Below, piece after piece: positions 11,971 to 63,522 of a stretch of DNA of 64,000 nucleotides. This DNA comes from a phage. Positions within the stretch are counted from its first letter, which is position 1. Every line of letters begins with the position of its first letter. The stretch lies in NCBI GenBank assembly GCA_024572335.1, contig GCA_024572335.1_3052.1; one strand, given 5' to 3'. Position numbers and translations under genes: made by a program. The notes under the pieces were generated by a model. It saw nothing but the letters and a program-made list of their open reading frames with translations. It searched no databases and was not told where the DNA came from.

Positions 11971-12995
11971 ATCTTAGCATATTTAGATAGCCGCATTTTA
12001 GCCATCAACCCCTGGGCAATATTATTTTTCATATATTCCATAATTTGTTCAGGGGTTGCACCTTCCTTTCTAATCATATCATTAACATCTTTTGATTTCC
12101 AGGGAGATTTATCCCAAAACATAACCCTTTCTCCTGCATCAACTAATTTAGTCATTCGTTTAATAGTGTCAGGGTGACGAGGTTCATTATCTAAGACCCA
12201 CACTCGTCTATCTTTAAATGGAACAACTTCTAGGTCTAATTGACCACCCGTAATAGCTATACCATTTTCAATAAAAAGTGAATCTATAGGTCCTTCTAGA
12301 ACATATACATCACCATCTTTGACTCGTTCGACTCCATAGATTTTTGTTGCCTCAGGATAAGCTTTGATGGTGATATATTTTTGAGGAGCATCTTTCTTTA
12401 ATGCACGTCCTTGAAAAGACTCAGCTTTTCCGTTAGCATTATAAATTGGAATAACAAGACGAGGCTCAGGTGTTTCCTTTTTATATGTTCCTGGAGCTAT
12501 ACTATTAACTAATTTAGGCCATTCAGTTGTAAACCAAAGATATTTCCATTTATCCTTTGGAATACAACGAGCTTTTACATATTTTATAATTGCATGGTCT
12601 TCCGCCAATTTATCTAATCTGATGCATGACGGAAGAGATTTAATTATTTTCTTCTCAGGTTGTTTAGGAAGTTCTTTAGGTTTTTCTACTGGACGACTTT
12701 TACCTTTTTCTTTTCTTATTTCAAAGATATACTCACGATATAAATCAGGTTCAAACTCCTTTAAATATATTCCGATTGGTGCATGATAGTTACAGTTATA
12801 ACAATGAATATTTCCTTCATTATTATCACCGTAATACCATCCACGGGCTTTATTCTGGTCGGTTTTTGAATCTCCACAAACAGGACATCTAAACCGTAAT
12901 TTAAAAGTTGAACTATTATTTACTTGTGTGAATTTAGGTAAATGAGCTAATGCACGGTATGCAAACTCATTATCAATCCAAGGTATTGATGACAT
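11967..12995 (-). CDS. 61: DNA primase gp61
   Basis: 342 aa; zinc ribbon CPVCGDSK...CYNC; TOPRIM-like EGPIDSL; adjacent to helicase 41 region. Confidence 0.9.
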   Translation of the reverse strand: MSSIPWIDNEFAYRALAHLPKFTQVNNSSTFKLRFRCPVCGDSKTDQNKARGWYYGDNNEGNIHCYNCNYHAPIGIYLKEFEPDLYREYIFEIRKEKGKSRPVEKPKELPKQPEKKIIKSLPSCIRLDKLAEDHAIIKYVKARCIPKDKWKYLWFTTEWPKLVNSIAPGTYKKETPEPRLVIPIYNANGKAESFQGRALKKDAPQKYITIKAYPEATKIYGVERVKDGDVYVLEGPIDSLFIENGIAITGGQLDLEVVPFKDRRVWVLDNEPRHPDTIKRMTKLVDAGERVMFWDKSPWKSKDVNDMIRKEGATPEQIMEYMKNNIAQGLMAKMRLSKYAKI

Positions 12996-12997
12996 TT

Positions 12998-13162
12998 TTA
13001 CTCTTCTTTTTCTTTAGATTCCTCTTTTTTCTTTTTAGGAATCTGTTCAGGACCTTTATTTACTACAGCGCCTGATGTTGTTCCAGTAGAGATATTTTCA
13101 GGACTACCACCTGAATCTCCAGCGACCATATTTTCTTTGATAAATTCTTTATATGTTTTCAT
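12998..13162 (-). CDS. Small low-complexity protein with capsid-targeting-like N-terminus
   Basis: 54 aa ORF not in track (below 60 aa); translated by hand: MKTYKEFIKENMVAGDSGGSPENISTGTTSGAVVNKGPEQIPKKKKEESKEKEE; stop 2 nt before gene 61 ATG. Confidence 0.35.
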   Translation of the reverse strand: MKTYKEFIKENMVAGDSGGSPENISTGTTSGAVVNKGPEQIPKKKKEESKEKEE

Positions 13163-56535: not shown

Positions 56536-57009
56536 TTATTTGAACGATTTAACGTACTGAATAGAACCCTTACTATTCACAAAGGCAATTTTACCATTTT
56601 TATTATACATGGTAGCAGTACGCTGATAACCATAGGTTTGTTTACCAGATTGATAACCAACTAATGCAAAATTATCTTCACCCATTTTATTCTGTTTAGC
56701 GCGAATGCGTTCATGACCATGTGCCATAAGAACCTTAGCATCACCAGTTGCAATGGATCGACGAGTTTTTTCATCTTCAACTGCATTAACAAAGTCGTCA
56801 AATGAATCAAATTTAGCATGAGATTTATTATACAATTTTCCATCTACTGCATAATTATATCCCTGTACATCCATCTCAACTTCTGTACCATCATCCAATA
56901 CAGCAGTAATTTTTTGACCTTTTTTAAATTTCAAAAGATCAGTAAAAGATTCAGCAATAATTTGAGAATTAATAGCTGCTTCAGTGATAAATTCTTGATA
57001 TGTTTTCAT
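56536..57009 (-). CDS. Internal protein (IP) with capsid targeting sequence
   Basis: 157 aa; N-terminal MKTYQEFITEA matches the T4 IP capsid-targeting decapeptide; located just downstream of e as T4 ipIII/ipII. Confidence 0.6.
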   Translation of the reverse strand: MKTYQEFITEAAINSQIIAESFTDLLKFKKGQKITAVLDDGTEVEMDVQGYNYAVDGKLYNKSHAKFDSFDDFVNAVEDEKTRRSIATGDAKVLMAHGHERIRAKQNKMGEDNFALVGYQSGKQTYGYQRTATMYNKNGKIAFVNSKGSIQYVKSFK

Positions 57010-60960: not shown

Positions 60961-61224
60961 TTATTTCATATTATTGAAATATTCTTCAGCAATTTCATCA
61001 TTATCATGATAAACTTTAGAAGACAGTTTAACATAACTTTCAGCAGTGAACATGTTAATCACAACCTTTACAGTATACCACTGACCATCTTCATTACCCA
61101 TTACTGCGTAAGTTTCAAACAACGGATGATCAGGACCGATAACTTTAATATCATTCACTGTACGACCGAAATCTTCTGAAACACATTTCATAAAGAAGTT
61201 GAACAGTTCGCCGTAATTATCCAT
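60961..61224 (-). CDS. Hypothetical small protein
   Basis: Track start TTG at 61287 lies in a promoter; ATG at 61224 follows SD GGAGA. Confidence 0.4.
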   Translation of the reverse strand: MDNYGELFNFFMKCVSEDFGRTVNDIKVIGPDHPLFETYAVMGNEDGQWYTVKVVINMFTAESYVKLSSKVYHDNDEIAEEYFNNMK

Positions 61225-61265: not shown

Positions 61266-61297
61266 GTATAGTACCATGGAAGGACAAGGATGTAAAC
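61266..61297 (-). promoter_or_regulatory. Early promoter of the repeated promoter-leader cassette
   Basis: GTTTAC, 17 nt, GGTACTATAC; conserved leader and SD GGAGA. Confidence 0.55.
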
Positions 61298-61351: not shown

Positions 61352-61434
61352 AAATCAAAGGATAGGATAATATATTATAAAGGGTAGAAACTAAATGATG
61401 TCTAGAGAGGCCTGGAAAGGCCTAGATACCAAAA

Positions 61435-61458
61435 AGCCCCAACCTTTCGGCTAGGGCT
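61435..61458 (-). terminator. Terminator after the IP-like gene (copy 1 of a repeated hairpin)
   Basis: AGCCCxAGCCGAAAGGUUGGGGCU bulged hairpin followed by U5. Confidence 0.65.
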
Positions 61459-61465
61459 AAGAATG

Positions 61466-61939
61466 TTATTTGATTTGTTTAGCAGACCAAATGCGGTCTT
61501 TAATAATTTTTTGGATGTCTTCAACATACTCAAGAGAGTGAGCATGTGGGTTATCTTTGAAACTATAAGCACGAGCTAACTTTTGACCTTCAGTTTTGAT
61601 TACTAAAAGCTCTTTAAGGATAGCTTCATATTTGGAGATAATTCCTTTAACAATATTTTTCTCTTGTGCGACTTTAGGATCTGCTTTAGGAGCAGGTTTA
61701 CCCGAAGCCTTTGCAAAAGCAGCGCCAGTAGCAACTAAACTTTTCCAGGCCATACTAACTGCATTTCCCGTAAATCCTTCTGCTTTCATGTCGCGAGCAA
61801 ATTGGAATCGTGATTCATCAGAAGCATCTTTATAGGAATATTTACCCGCTGCAATGGCTGCTTTTGCGACAGCTTGAATTTCGGTGCTAGACGCTTCATT
61901 TAACACCGCTTCATTTAAAAATTGAGTATATGATTTCAT
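61466..61939 (-). CDS. Internal-protein-like gene with capsid-targeting-like N-terminus
   Basis: 157 aa; N-terminal MKSYTQFLNEA; late promoter TATAAATA upstream; flanked by duplicated terminator hairpins. Confidence 0.5.
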   Translation of the reverse strand: MKSYTQFLNEAVLNEASSTEIQAVAKAAIAAGKYSYKDASDESRFQFARDMKAEGFTGNAVSMAWKSLVATGAAFAKASGKPAPKADPKVAQEKNIVKGIISKYEAILKELLVIKTEGQKLARAYSFKDNPHAHSLEYVEDIQKIIKDRIWSAKQIK

Positions 61940-61975
61940 CTTATTTCCTGTTTTAATTTGTAGATTTAATATACT

Positions 61976-61983
61976 TATTTATA
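61976..61983 (-). promoter_or_regulatory. Late promoter upstream of the IP-like gene
   Basis: TATAAATA on minus strand about 35 nt upstream of ATG 61939. Confidence 0.55.
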
Positions 61984-61989
61984 CTAAAA

Positions 61990-62013
61990 AGCCCCAACCT
62001 TTCGGCTGGGGCT
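61990..62013 (-). terminator. Terminator after the tRNA/stable-RNA region (copy 2 of the repeated hairpin)
   Basis: AGCCCCAGCCGAAAGGUUGGGGCU followed by U5. Confidence 0.7.
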
Positions 62014-62064
62014 AAGCCTTGCGGCAACCTTGTCGGGGTTCCACCTGCTAAGGCAAGTGTTTGT

Positions 62065-62157
62065 ACGAAACGCCGGGATTCGAACCCGGTTATCAAGCAG
62101 TTGACGCTACTCAATATTTTTAAAAGGCCATATCTCGACCATATCCGAACGTTCCGT
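62065..62157 (-). ncRNA. tRNA-like stable RNA candidate (T4 rnaC/rnaD-type)
   Basis: 8-bp acceptor-like stem (ACGGAACG/CGTTTCGT) enclosing a perfect T-arm CCGGG-TTCGAAT-CCCGG but about 60 nt of non-canonical internal sequence. Confidence 0.3.
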
Positions 62158-62324
62158 CAAAAACGCTACTCGGCTTACGGCAAAGATATTTCCTCGAATC
62201 GATAATTCGGTGCGCCGTTTCTGCTGTGATATAAGGGGACATTAACAAAACATAAAGATTTATTAATGCCAGTCCTTAAACAGGGAACATCAGTCCGACG
62301 ACTTACCGGTAGCGACCCGGTTTC

Positions 62325-62675
62325 TTAATATTCTTTTAAAGCATCAATCTGTTCACGGCGTTTACGCCATAAATCAATTGCTTCATACGCAGATTCAGCA
62401 TTTCGAATTAGCCGGCATTTATGTAAAGACTTATGATTTTGATATTGTGTAGATAATGGAATTGTATCTAAAAGGTCTTTACGATCAAAGTATTCGTAAC
62501 CATCTAAACCAAATGAACGATTTTTGAGAAATTGCCAATGGCCAAATTCATTTTCAACATAAACATAATCTGCATGCTGATAAAGTAAATTAATTACACG
62601 TTCAGAAATAGCAGTATCATTATGATTAAAATAGAATGTTAAATCATGAACTACTAAATAAACATTACCTTTCAT
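62325..62675 (-). CDS. Hypothetical protein within the tRNA region
   Basis: Track ORF 62325..62723 starts at TTG inside tRNA-Arg; ATG at 62675 follows SD GAGGA. Confidence 0.4.
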   Translation of the reverse strand: MKGNVYLVVHDLTFYFNHNDTAISERVINLLYQHADYVYVENEFGHWQFLKNRSFGLDGYEYFDRKDLLDTIPLSTQYQNHKSLHKCRLIRNAESAYEAIDLWRKRREQIDALKEY

Positions 62676-62693: not shown

Positions 62694-62770
<77 letters not shown>

Positions 62771-62777
62771 TATTTTG

Positions 62778-62849
62778 CGGACGTGATAGGATTCGAACCT
62801 ATAACCAATCGCTTAACAGGCGATCGCTCTGCCATTGAGCTACACATCC
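62778..62849 (-). tRNA. tRNA-Asn (anticodon GUU)
   Basis: Acceptor GGATGTG/CACGTCC, D-stem GCTC/GAGC, anticodon stem ATCGC/GCGAT, loop CTGTTAA, T-loop TTCGAAT; CCA not encoded. Confidence 0.8.
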
Positions 62850-62853
62850 AAAT

Positions 62854-62940
62854 TGGTGGGGAGTGGTGGAGTCGAACCACCCGAGTCGCAATGACAATGA
62901 ATTTACAGTCCACACCGCTACCTCTACGGGATAACTCCCC
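62854..62940 (-). tRNA. tRNA-Tyr (anticodon GUA), long variable arm
   Basis: Acceptor GGGGAGT/ACTCCCC, anticodon loop CTGTAAA, variable arm TGTCATTGCGACTCG similar to E. coli tRNA-Tyr; CCA encoded. Confidence 0.75.
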
Positions 62941-62949
62941 AAATTAATT

Positions 62950-63024
62950 TGGTGGCCCTGGGTGGAATTGAACCACCATCTGGCGATTATGAGTCGCTTG
63001 CTTGAACCTTCCAGCTACAGGGCC
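62950..63024 (-). tRNA. tRNA-Ile (anticodon CAU, lysidine-type as in T4) or Met
   Basis: Acceptor GGCCCTG/CAGGGCC, anticodon loop CTCATAA, T-arm GGTGG-TTCAATT-CCACC; CCA encoded. Confidence 0.75.
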
Positions 63025-63025
63025 T

Positions 63026-63101
63026 TGGTGCTGATTAACGGAATCGAACCGCCGACCTTCTCATTACAAGTGAGTTGCTCTACCTACTGAGCTAAATCAG
63101 C
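63026..63101 (-). tRNA. tRNA-Thr (anticodon UGU)
   Basis: Acceptor GCTGATT, D-stem GCTC/GAGC, anticodon loop CTTGTAA, T-loop TTCGATT; CCA encoded. Confidence 0.85.
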
Positions 63102-63106
63102 AAAAC

Positions 63107-63196
63107 TGGCGGAGGCGATAGGATTTGAACCTATGAGTCGCCGGAGCGACTGCCGGTTTTCAAGACCGGTGCATTAAACCACTCTGCCACGCCTCC
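63107..63196 (-). tRNA. tRNA-Ser (anticodon UGA), long variable arm
   Basis: Acceptor GGAGGCG, anticodon stem CCGGT/ACCGG, loop CTTGAAA, long variable arm; CCA encoded. Confidence 0.85.
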
Positions 63197-63198
63197 AG

Positions 63199-63272
63199 TC
63201 TCCATACAAGGATTTGAACCTTGGACCTCCTGATCCCAAATCAGGCGCTCTACCAAACTGAGCTACACGGAG
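63199..63272 (-). tRNA. tRNA-Pro (anticodon UGG)
   Basis: Acceptor CTCCGTG, anticodon stem CCTGA/TCAGG, loop TTTGGGA, T-loop TTCAAAT; CCA not encoded. Confidence 0.85.
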
Positions 63273-63282
63273 TAAATTAAAT

Positions 63283-63356
<74 letters not shown>

Positions 63357-63361
63357 AAATT

Positions 63362-63448
63362 TGGTGCGAGAAGTGGGACTCGAACCCACAAGGAAATCAT
63401 TCCGCAGCATTTTAAGTGCTGTGCCTTTACCAATTTGACCATTCTCGC
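63362..63448 (-). tRNA. tRNA-Leu (anticodon UAA), long variable arm
   Basis: Acceptor GCGAGAA, anticodon stem CAGCA/TGCTG, loop CTTAAAA, long variable arm, T-loop TTCGAGT; CCA encoded. Confidence 0.85.
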
Positions 63449-63449
63449 G

Positions 63450-63522
63450 CTGGGAATAAAGGACTCGAACCTTTGCATCCTGGAATCAAAATCCAGTGCC
63501 TTACCAACTTGGCTAATTCCCA
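63450..63522 (-). tRNA. tRNA-Gln (anticodon UUG)
   Basis: Acceptor TGGGAAT/ATTCCCA, anticodon stem CTGGA/TCCAG, loop TTTTGAT; CCA not encoded; separated from tRNA-Leu by 1 nt. Confidence 0.85.

Follow-up and report, generated by a model that had tools for sequence, protein, structure and literature searches.

A 64,000-nt stretch of phage DNA (GenBank assembly GCA_024572335.1, contig GCA_024572335.1_3052.1; hereafter the window) carries, between the stable RNA gene rnaC and the gene e.8, an open reading frame (ORF) of 157 amino acids (aa) whose product begins like the internal proteins (IPs) of T-even phages and is called IP157 here. A 36-nt direct repeat with the form of an intrinsic terminator lies on both sides of this ORF and of the late promoter motif in front of it. 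It is probable that the repeat is a duplicated terminator of the tRNA-rnaD-rnaC unit, that it brackets a self-contained late IP157 unit, and that this unit is lost and regained by recombination.

The duplicated hairpin

A repeat search placed the two copies at 61426-61461 and 61981-62016, with 34/36 positions identical (94%) and a spacing of 555 nt. The initial annotation had located the first copy correctly (61431) but placed the second (61988-62018) 2 nt too far right, as judged by the repeat search and a consensus scan. The 31-nt consensus of that annotation, with ≤3 mismatches allowed over the whole 64-kb window, matched at 61431-61461 and 61986-62016 alone, and 0 matches were obtained in 100 dinucleotide-preserving shuffles of the window. 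That both copies fold as terminator-like hairpins on the minus strand was confirmed by folding and by a terminator scan, in which they were the two highest-ranked hits: each has a 10-bp stem with 6-7 GC pairs, a GAAA loop and TTTT. The repeats do bracket an IP-like gene with its late promoter, as had been claimed, the motif TATAAATA and the 157-aa ORF both lying between the copies. Features from rnaC to e.8, in transcript order, were as follows.

62064..62202, minus strand: rnaC (species 1 stable RNA), 139/139 identical to RB68 and 136/139 to T4; last gene ahead of copy 1.
61981..62016, minus strand: repeat copy 1 (upstream in the transcript), stem-loop 61990-62013 (AGCCCCAGCC-GAAA-GGTTGGGGCT), T-tract 61986-61989, then AGTAT.
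61976..61983, minus strand: late promoter consensus of T4 type, TATAAATA, which begins 2 nt past the copy 1 T-tract; putative function, from the consensus.
61944..61949, minus strand: Shine-Dalgarno-like AGGAAA, 4 nt ahead of the ATG; read from the sequence.
61466..61939, minus strand: IP157, 157-aa ORF with the leader MKSYTQFLNEA.
61426..61461, minus strand: repeat copy 2 (downstream), stem-loop 61435-61458 (AGCCCTAGCC-GAAA-GGTTGGGGCT), T-tract 61431-61434, then GGTAT.
61268..61296, minus strand: e.8 early promoter (sigma-70-like), TTTACA-17-TACTAT with a TG extension; the same in all locus states.
60961..61224, minus strand: e.8 homologue, 87 aa; conserved right flank of the variable site.

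The stem of copy 2 differs from that of copy 1 in a single C-G pair that has become U-G. The bare 24-nt hairpins folded at -20.1 (copy 1) and -17.8 kcal/mol (copy 2), and wider folding windows on the minus strand gave -25.2 kcal/mol (z = -3.7) for copy 1 and -18.5 kcal/mol (z = -2.9) for copy 2. Plus-strand folds were weaker (-19.9 and -9.7 kcal/mol), with G-U pairs turned into C-A mismatches and no subsequent T-run. Stem variants (AG, GA and C-to-T) retain pairing through G-U solely in the minus-strand transcript, and one hairpin variant carries a compensatory CG-to-GC change.

Copy 1 begins 50 nt past the annotated 3' end of rnaC in the window, in RB68 and in T4, and the same hairpin stands behind rnaC in 20/20 T4-like loci examined that include the rnaC 3' end, T4 among them. 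The sequence past copy 2 (GGTATCTAGGCC...) is the sequence past the single hairpin of T4. We infer that copy 1 is the intrinsic terminator of the tRNA-rnaD-rnaC unit and that copy 2 is the terminator of an IP157 late transcript. A few GenBank records carry a 'terminator' annotation at the hairpin match, and in a search of Rfam neither the hairpin nor rnaC nor rnaD matched a family. Copy 2 has no adjoining promoter; the e.8 early promoter starts ~135 nt further on. Directly past copy 2 in the transcript is a small palindrome, GGCCTGGAAAGGCC (window 61409-61425), which is kept in most relatives and imperfect in T4.

The two hairpins might instead be alike through selection for strong GNRA-loop terminators, with the diversity of the locus produced by ordinary recombination in the rnaC and e.8 flanks. 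The exact 20-nt hairpin core (CCGAAAGGTTGGGGCTTTTT) was indeed found in unrelated phage contigs of IMG/VR with quite different flanks (~20/34 loci), so the motif can arise independently, and the flank haplotypes are mosaic, as general recombination would give. Such convergence is nevertheless very improbable, as the 34/36 identity extends over positions that do not pair (5' CTT, the GAAA loop and 3' GTAT), the homologous genes in the Mosigvirus contig L036 and the Klebsiella Jiaodavirus phiKp_22 use 3' terminators unrelated to their upstream hairpins, and the four locus states described below all break exactly at the T-run. Together, the non-pairing identity and the unrelated 3' terminators indicate that the similarity of the copies reflects homology (duplication or conversion) and not a requirement of termination.

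Two other origins were considered and rejected. A genome-wide dispersed repeat element does not fit the ≤3-mismatch scan, which confined the hairpin to a single locus of the window. A transposon target-site duplication was dismissed because neither a transposase nor inverted ends were present, and because the duplicated element has the form of a functional terminator that is single-copy in T4.

States of the locus in related phages

The locus was collected from 16 annotated phages and from 34 IMG/VR contigs holding the hairpin core; nine loci were aligned between the 3' end of rnaC and the start codon of e.8, and feature scans were added. Over the 1.5 kb around the locus, several hundred Tequatrovirus genomes match the window at 95-99.5% identity (closest ESH35, SHBML-50-1, RB51, RB68 and AR1), and by this identity the window is a Tequatrovirus of the RB51/RB68/ESH35 type. 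Four or more states of the locus were found, the main four of which read as follows.

State A (T4): rnaC, one hairpin, GGTATCT..., e.8; no cargo gene.
State B (the window, RB68, ESH35, L042): rnaC, hairpin, a unit of TATAAATA, IP157 and hairpin, then GGTATCT... and e.8.
State C (Killian, ESh28, Pu-Krd-SF1): rnaC, hairpin, a unit of AGTTTGAATC..., IP187 and a different terminator (CCCTATCTAAATGATAGGG), then GGTATCT... and e.8.
State D (ECO07P5, sb1, L020, L026): rnaC, hairpin, a unit of IP157 and hairpin, a unit of IP187 and a second terminator, then e.8; AGTTTGAATC follows the second hairpin in ECO07P5 and L020.

In the alignment of the nine loci, all state boundaries coincide with the T-run of a terminator. 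IP187 is a 187-aa product that starts MKTYAEFLTEA; by BLASTP it shares just the 11 leader residues with IP157, and both match phrog_2280 end to end. Of the two hairpins, IP187, a 208-aa gene of Mosigvirus and a gene for a 184-aa membrane protein (both below) have the 5' one only, each ending in its own, different 3' terminator.

The initial annotation had taken the repeats as the footprint expected of cassette-type exchange, in keeping with the known plasticity of T-even IP loci. The plasticity of the site and its breakpoints at the hairpin agree with exchange, but the finding of IP157 homologues in one and the same position in Tequatrovirus, Mosigvirus and Jiaodavirus, and once per genome, speaks for an old resident gene that some lineages have lost and not for a roaming cassette. 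Nor is this a known plastic IP locus: the gene lies between rnaC and e.8, outside both recognized loci, which in T4 hold ipI (beside 57B) and ipII/ipIII (flanked by denV and e).

State frequencies were estimated from BLAST junction counts as an approximate census. The right junction specific to state B was present in 278 records and that specific to state D in 125; the two together agree with the 402 records matched over the full length of the query. IP187 was found in 165 records, which leaves ~40 for state C, and empty sites number ~80 when extrapolated from an evenly spaced sample of records. Only the B- and D-junction counts were used directly, the 'empty site' and 'state C' junction queries being inflated; the junction searches matched 530-736 places in 494-605 records, ~1-1.5 per record. 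Over 275 positions of the left flank, the window (state B) differs from Pu-Krd-SF1 (state C) at 4 and from ECO07P5 (state D) at 31. State and flank haplotype thus do not go together, which is expected if recombination reshuffles the states.

Homing could reshuffle states as well. SegB-type endonucleases that cut in the tRNA cluster would start co-conversion tracts in mixed infection, with no part played by recombination at the hairpin. SegB-like genes lie ~1 kb away in the tRNA clusters of T4, RB68, ESH35, Killian and Pu-Krd-SF1, though not in the window, and homing has been described as a parallel source of plasticity (Comeau et al. 2014, PMC4122927). Co-conversion passes on the state of the donor, however, and leaves the coincidence of end points with T-runs unexplained; as the main cause of the pattern it is decidedly unlikely.

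IP157 as a candidate internal protein

The IP157 ORF starts MKSYTQFLNEAVLNEA, and 37 nt separate the end of the perfect TATAAATA motif from its ATG; T-even IPs are expressed late, along with the head genes. They share a conserved capsid-targeting leader of ~10-11 residues at the N-terminus. In an alignment of its leader with those of T4 IPI, IPII and IPIII and of the IPs of the window and ESH35, M1, K2 and F7 are invariant, and the whole alignment follows the pattern MK[ST][YF]x[EQ]F[ILT]xE. At the end of the leader, the T4 head protease gp21 cuts motifs of the type L/I-x-E. The IP157 translation has two L-x-E motifs (LNE|A, residues 8-10 and 14-16), at which cleavage is predicted. Known internal proteins have nothing but the capsid-targeting leader in common (PMC3012670; PMC12373910), so the leader is the only sequence test for membership, and IP157 passes it.

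The family to which IP157 belongs, phrog_2280, is unnamed in PHROGs, and sequence searches of Pfam and the PDB found no match for the protein. A single-sequence AlphaFold2 model was all-helical and of moderate confidence (mean predicted local distance difference test score 72, predicted template modeling score 0.41). IP157 is called 'hypothetical' in all GenBank records among the matches listed and in every named member of a 216-member cluster. The label 'IP-like' is reasonable on the leader and motifs, if unproven, and the protein probably enters the prohead, where the head protease would trim it, and is then injected along with the DNA.

Against this it may be held that MK(S/T)Y..F..EA is a shared initiation feature or a sequence relic, and that IP157 is an ordinary late cytoplasmic product. 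The 'hypothetical' status in all databases and the lack of Pfam or PDB relatives would fit, as would a leader that is only partly identical to those of the T4 IPs and a 54-aa ORF that starts similarly far from any IP locus. On the other side, leader, L-x-E motifs, late promoter motif and small size all agree with the definition of an IP, known members of which share nothing else, and the three unrelated-looking cargo genes at this site (IP157, IP187 and the 208-aa gene of Mosigvirus ST0) all bear the leader. A cytoplasmic product is thus somewhat unlikely.

The 54-aa ORF (MKTYKEFIKENMVAGDSGG..., window 12998-13162, minus strand, phrog_1823) has an IP-type leader; either its product is a tiny peptide that is packaged, or the specificity of the leader motif has been overrated. 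The window also encodes, at the classical ipII/ipIII locus (56536-57009, minus strand), another 157-aa protein that belongs to phrog_3155, 'internal virion protein'. Ahead of that gene is an AT-rich palindrome, GAATTGTGATAGTATATTCACA, which resembles those before T4 ipII/ipIII and is not the GC-rich hairpin.

Homologues in other genera

IP157 homologues occurred once per genome in 512 records. Every IP157-family locus examined was directly behind the tRNA/stable-RNA region (Tequatrovirus, Mosigvirus and Jiaodavirus), with none seen at other positions. In Mosigvirus phiC120 and L037 the first slot holds a 154-aa allele (~76% identical), behind which come the hairpin and IP187, the L037 sequence covering the locus up to the second hairpin only. 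In Mosigvirus ST0, a 208-aa leader-bearing gene stands behind the hairpin and TATAAATA; Gaprivervirus RZ and VR20-like contigs have a 184-aa membrane protein with its own terminator, and Dhakavirus ABTNLS3 (L044) has an empty site.

In Klebsiella Jiaodavirus phiKp_22 (L049, 2440-3130), the hairpin AGCCCCGTC-TTCG-GACGGGGCT followed by TTTTT-AG-TATAAATA is found directly behind the tRNA genes. The homologue of IP157 in this phage has 177 aa and starts MKFKEFLAEA; identity in Jiaodavirus is ~52-58% over the N-terminal half. The terminator-to-TATAAATA junction, also present in RB68, ECO07P5 and ST0, is therefore kept across genera, while hairpin sequence and 3' terminator are not kept in phiKp_22.

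The terminator-to-late-promoter junction and the IP157 gene are accordingly taken as old residents of the site. The same position in three Tevenvirinae genera makes it most likely that an IP157-family gene is ancestral here and that empty sites are deletions. For the empty sites of T4 and Dhakavirus, deletion between two hairpin copies is the simplest explanation, and T4 probably lost IP157 by such a repeat-to-repeat event.

The opposite polarity would hold if a mobile unit of late promoter, IP157 and hairpin had recently integrated as a mini-circle into a single rnaC terminator, the empty T4 site being ancestral. The structure is exactly as expected from a one-hairpin circle integrating into a resident hairpin, the tandem second unit of state D fits repeated integration, and excision or integration between tandem promoter/stem-loop elements has been described for RB49/phi1 (PMC2839356; PMC4122927). 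Ancestry followed by loss accounts more easily for a family that occurs once per genome and always behind the tRNA/rnaC region where examined, and recent integration is unlikely.

Two further observations concern variants of the elements. A hairpin variant with a compensatory C-G to G-C swap, AGGCCC...GGGCCT, is the sole hairpin at the empty ABTNLS3 site; in the IMG/VR contig L036 it is an extra hairpin just upstream of e.8, after an IP154 gene and an unrelated terminator. The IMG/VR contig L039 holds a 126-aa leader-bearing ORF (12437-12814) that resembles a truncated form of the 208-aa ST0 gene (L045), with the same N-terminus and coding-like sequence that goes on past the L039 stop.

Proposed expression and exchange of the unit

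In the proposed model, copy 1 would halt early/middle transcription from the tRNA-rnaD-rnaC unit, and the late promoter 2 bases past its T-tract would start a short late transcript for IP157. The leader would direct IP157 into the prohead core. Copy 2 would end the late transcript and insulate the e.8 early promoter, making IP157 a promoter-ORF-terminator unit between two conserved units. Recombination or replication slippage between the 36-nt repeats could then excise the 555-bp unit precisely, and the single hairpin left behind would be the arrangement seen in T4. In a mixed infection, a relative could restore the unit or add a second one (IP187) by recombining through the hairpin or through the conserved sequence on either side, and the conserved hairpin would act as a common left join for other units.

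Several points weigh against this model. Its terminators, late promoter and packaging step all rest on consensus motifs, and the IP157 leader is identical to a T4 leader (MKTYQEFIAEA) at ~7/11 residues, with no database entry labeling IP157 an internal protein. Covariation over 11 hairpin variants amounted to 1 compensatory pair, a score reached by 31/500 shuffles and not significant; support for RNA-level selection on the hairpin is accordingly modest. The census of states is approximate, BLAST having joined pieces across the 555-bp unit in some junction searches. The initial annotation had suggested that related T-even genomes be compared for different cargo between the same repeats: differing cargo was found behind the same hairpin, but in the loci compared unrelated cargo never lay between two copies of it, a position held by IP157-family alleles only (157, 153 and 154 aa). 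Free T-even recombination through flanking homology could, finally, spread states without a crossover inside the 36-nt repeat. As flank recombination alone could do so, the repeat is needed solely to account for the exact end points.

Neighboring features upstream of rnaC

Every gene in the region surrounding the locus is on the minus strand. The complete transcript order is tRNAs, 116-aa ORF, rnaD, rnaC, copy 1, TATAAATA, AGGAAA, IP157, copy 2, early promoter and e.8, with rnaC and rnaD identified by their identity to annotated RB68 and T4 records. Features ahead of rnaC were as follows.

62694-63522, minus strand: ten tRNA genes.
62325-62675, minus strand: 116-aa ORF (phrog_3355), between tRNA-Arg and rnaD.
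62208..62328, minus strand: rnaD (species 2 stable RNA), 120/120 identical to the rnaD annotated in RB68.

RB68, ESH35, ECO07P5 and Mosigvirus phages have the 116-aa ORF, whereas T4, in which tRNA-Arg and rnaD are direct neighbors, lacks it; it is a further indel on the stable-RNA side. The tRNA cluster of the window contains no SegB-type homing endonuclease, such genes standing between tRNA genes in T4, RB68 and the 99.5%-identical ESH35. ESH35 has a tRNA-His, which the window does not.

Implications

Internal proteins act against host defence after injection: T4 Ip1, Ip2 and Ip3 each block a different GmrSD-type (type IV) restriction enzyme, as of 2025 (PMC12373910). If the leader-bearing genes beside rnaC are packaged, hundreds of sequenced therapeutic or model T-even phages would hold 1-2 further injected proteins now called 'hypothetical', and the presence or absence of these genes could contribute to differences in host range. 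Proof that IP157 and IP187 are injected anti-defence proteins would raise the significance of the locus. The locus, with its pair of 36-nt repeats, its 555-bp unit and each of the four combinations occurring in nature, is a simple natural test case of the way in which the end points of gene gain and loss in virulent phages are set by duplicated regulatory hairpins.

Comparison with known systems

The closest precedent is in the T-even IP loci themselves, where, according to later accounts of Repoila et al. 1994 (PMC2839356; PMC4122927), repeated promoter/stem-loop sequences flank the IP genes at two loci. As described there, and as here, small, non-essential, leader-bearing genes are flanked 5' and 3' by homologous regulatory stem-loop sequence, their number and identity vary in close relatives, and the repeats have been proposed to mediate shuffling. 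In those accounts the IP-locus repeats consist of T4 early promoters and weak AT-rich stem-loops (ipI and ipII/ipIII loci; PMC2839356); the rnaC-e.8 element, in contrast, is a strong GC-rich intrinsic terminator by prediction, joined to a late promoter motif. In ESH35 (L008, 3600-4070), an 85-aa gene at the ipI locus (MKTYKEFATE...) has the early-promoter repeat AAATAATTTCACAAAGTTGTTTACAC...GTAGTGATACTATTAC on both sides, which is the kind of repeat attributed to Repoila et al. 1994. Later literature counts two Ip loci and does not include rnaC-e.8 (PMC2839356; PMC12373910, 2025), and the locus is not mentioned by Petrov et al. 2010.

The PeSL and PmSL elements (Arbiol et al. 2010; Comeau et al. 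2014) combine a stem-loop with an early or middle promoter, are scattered through hyperplastic regions, where they mark the end points of indels, and can be excised as mini-circles (PMC4122927). They resemble the present arrangement in that a terminator stem-loop, a promoter and a Shine-Dalgarno sequence precede a small accessory ORF. Indels or replacements by which close relatives differ also end at PeSL, and the DNA that separates tandem copies can be deleted, a likeness to the repeat pair here. Their promoters, however, are sigma-70-like early (or Mot-dependent middle) ones, whereas the present element has a late promoter motif after copy 1 and none at copy 2; and PeSL have many dispersed copies per genome, as against 2 copies at one locus of the 64-kb window. 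Neither PeSL paper uses the term 'late promoter' in its main text (PMC2839356; PMC4122927). Of the features that define PeSL, a GC-rich terminator-like stem-loop is present here by sequence and predicted fold, as is the location at end points of indels or replacements, the four states and the further cargo of other genera all breaking at the hairpin T-run; both the sigma-70-like promoter directly downstream and the many dispersed copies are absent.

Morons of lambdoid phages, put forward by Hendrix and colleagues around 2000, are reportedly one-gene insertions between conserved genes that bring a promoter and a factor-independent terminator of their own. The IP157 unit is similar in that it is autonomous, with promoter, ORF and terminator, that related phages have or lack it between the same two neighboring genes, and that it likely functions in host interaction; morons differ in being usually prophage-expressed and without a duplicated terminator, the product here being predicted to be late-lytic and virion-borne. 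Integron cassettes (attC) offer an analogy only: single ORFs bounded by an imperfect palindrome form arrays that grow at a fixed site, but here there is no integrase or att-type site, the hairpins are putative terminators, and units are presumably exchanged through general recombination.

For T-even IP loci and PeSL, earlier work has described recombination at regulatory stem-loops that are repeated, and the underlying idea is not new. Two points are modestly new: leader-bearing genes, 'hypothetical' everywhere, at a third locus beyond the two recognized ones, and a terminator joined to a late promoter motif in place of an early-promoter stem-loop; IP157 may already be catalogued as an IP variant in Repoila et al. 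1994, in the T4 genome review or in the supplement of Comeau 2014. Leader-bearing genes (IP157, IP187 and the 208-aa Mosigvirus form, all phrog_2280) are estimated to be at this site in ~85% of sequenced Tequatrovirus genomes. We tentatively raise the possibility, on balance still doubtful, that rnaC-e.8 is a third IP locus of T-even and related phages holding 0-2 leader genes bounded by terminator and late promoter, the products of which would, by analogy with Ip1-3, be injected anti-defence proteins with new targets. Its units would then be the late-promoter counterpart of PeSL and PmSL.

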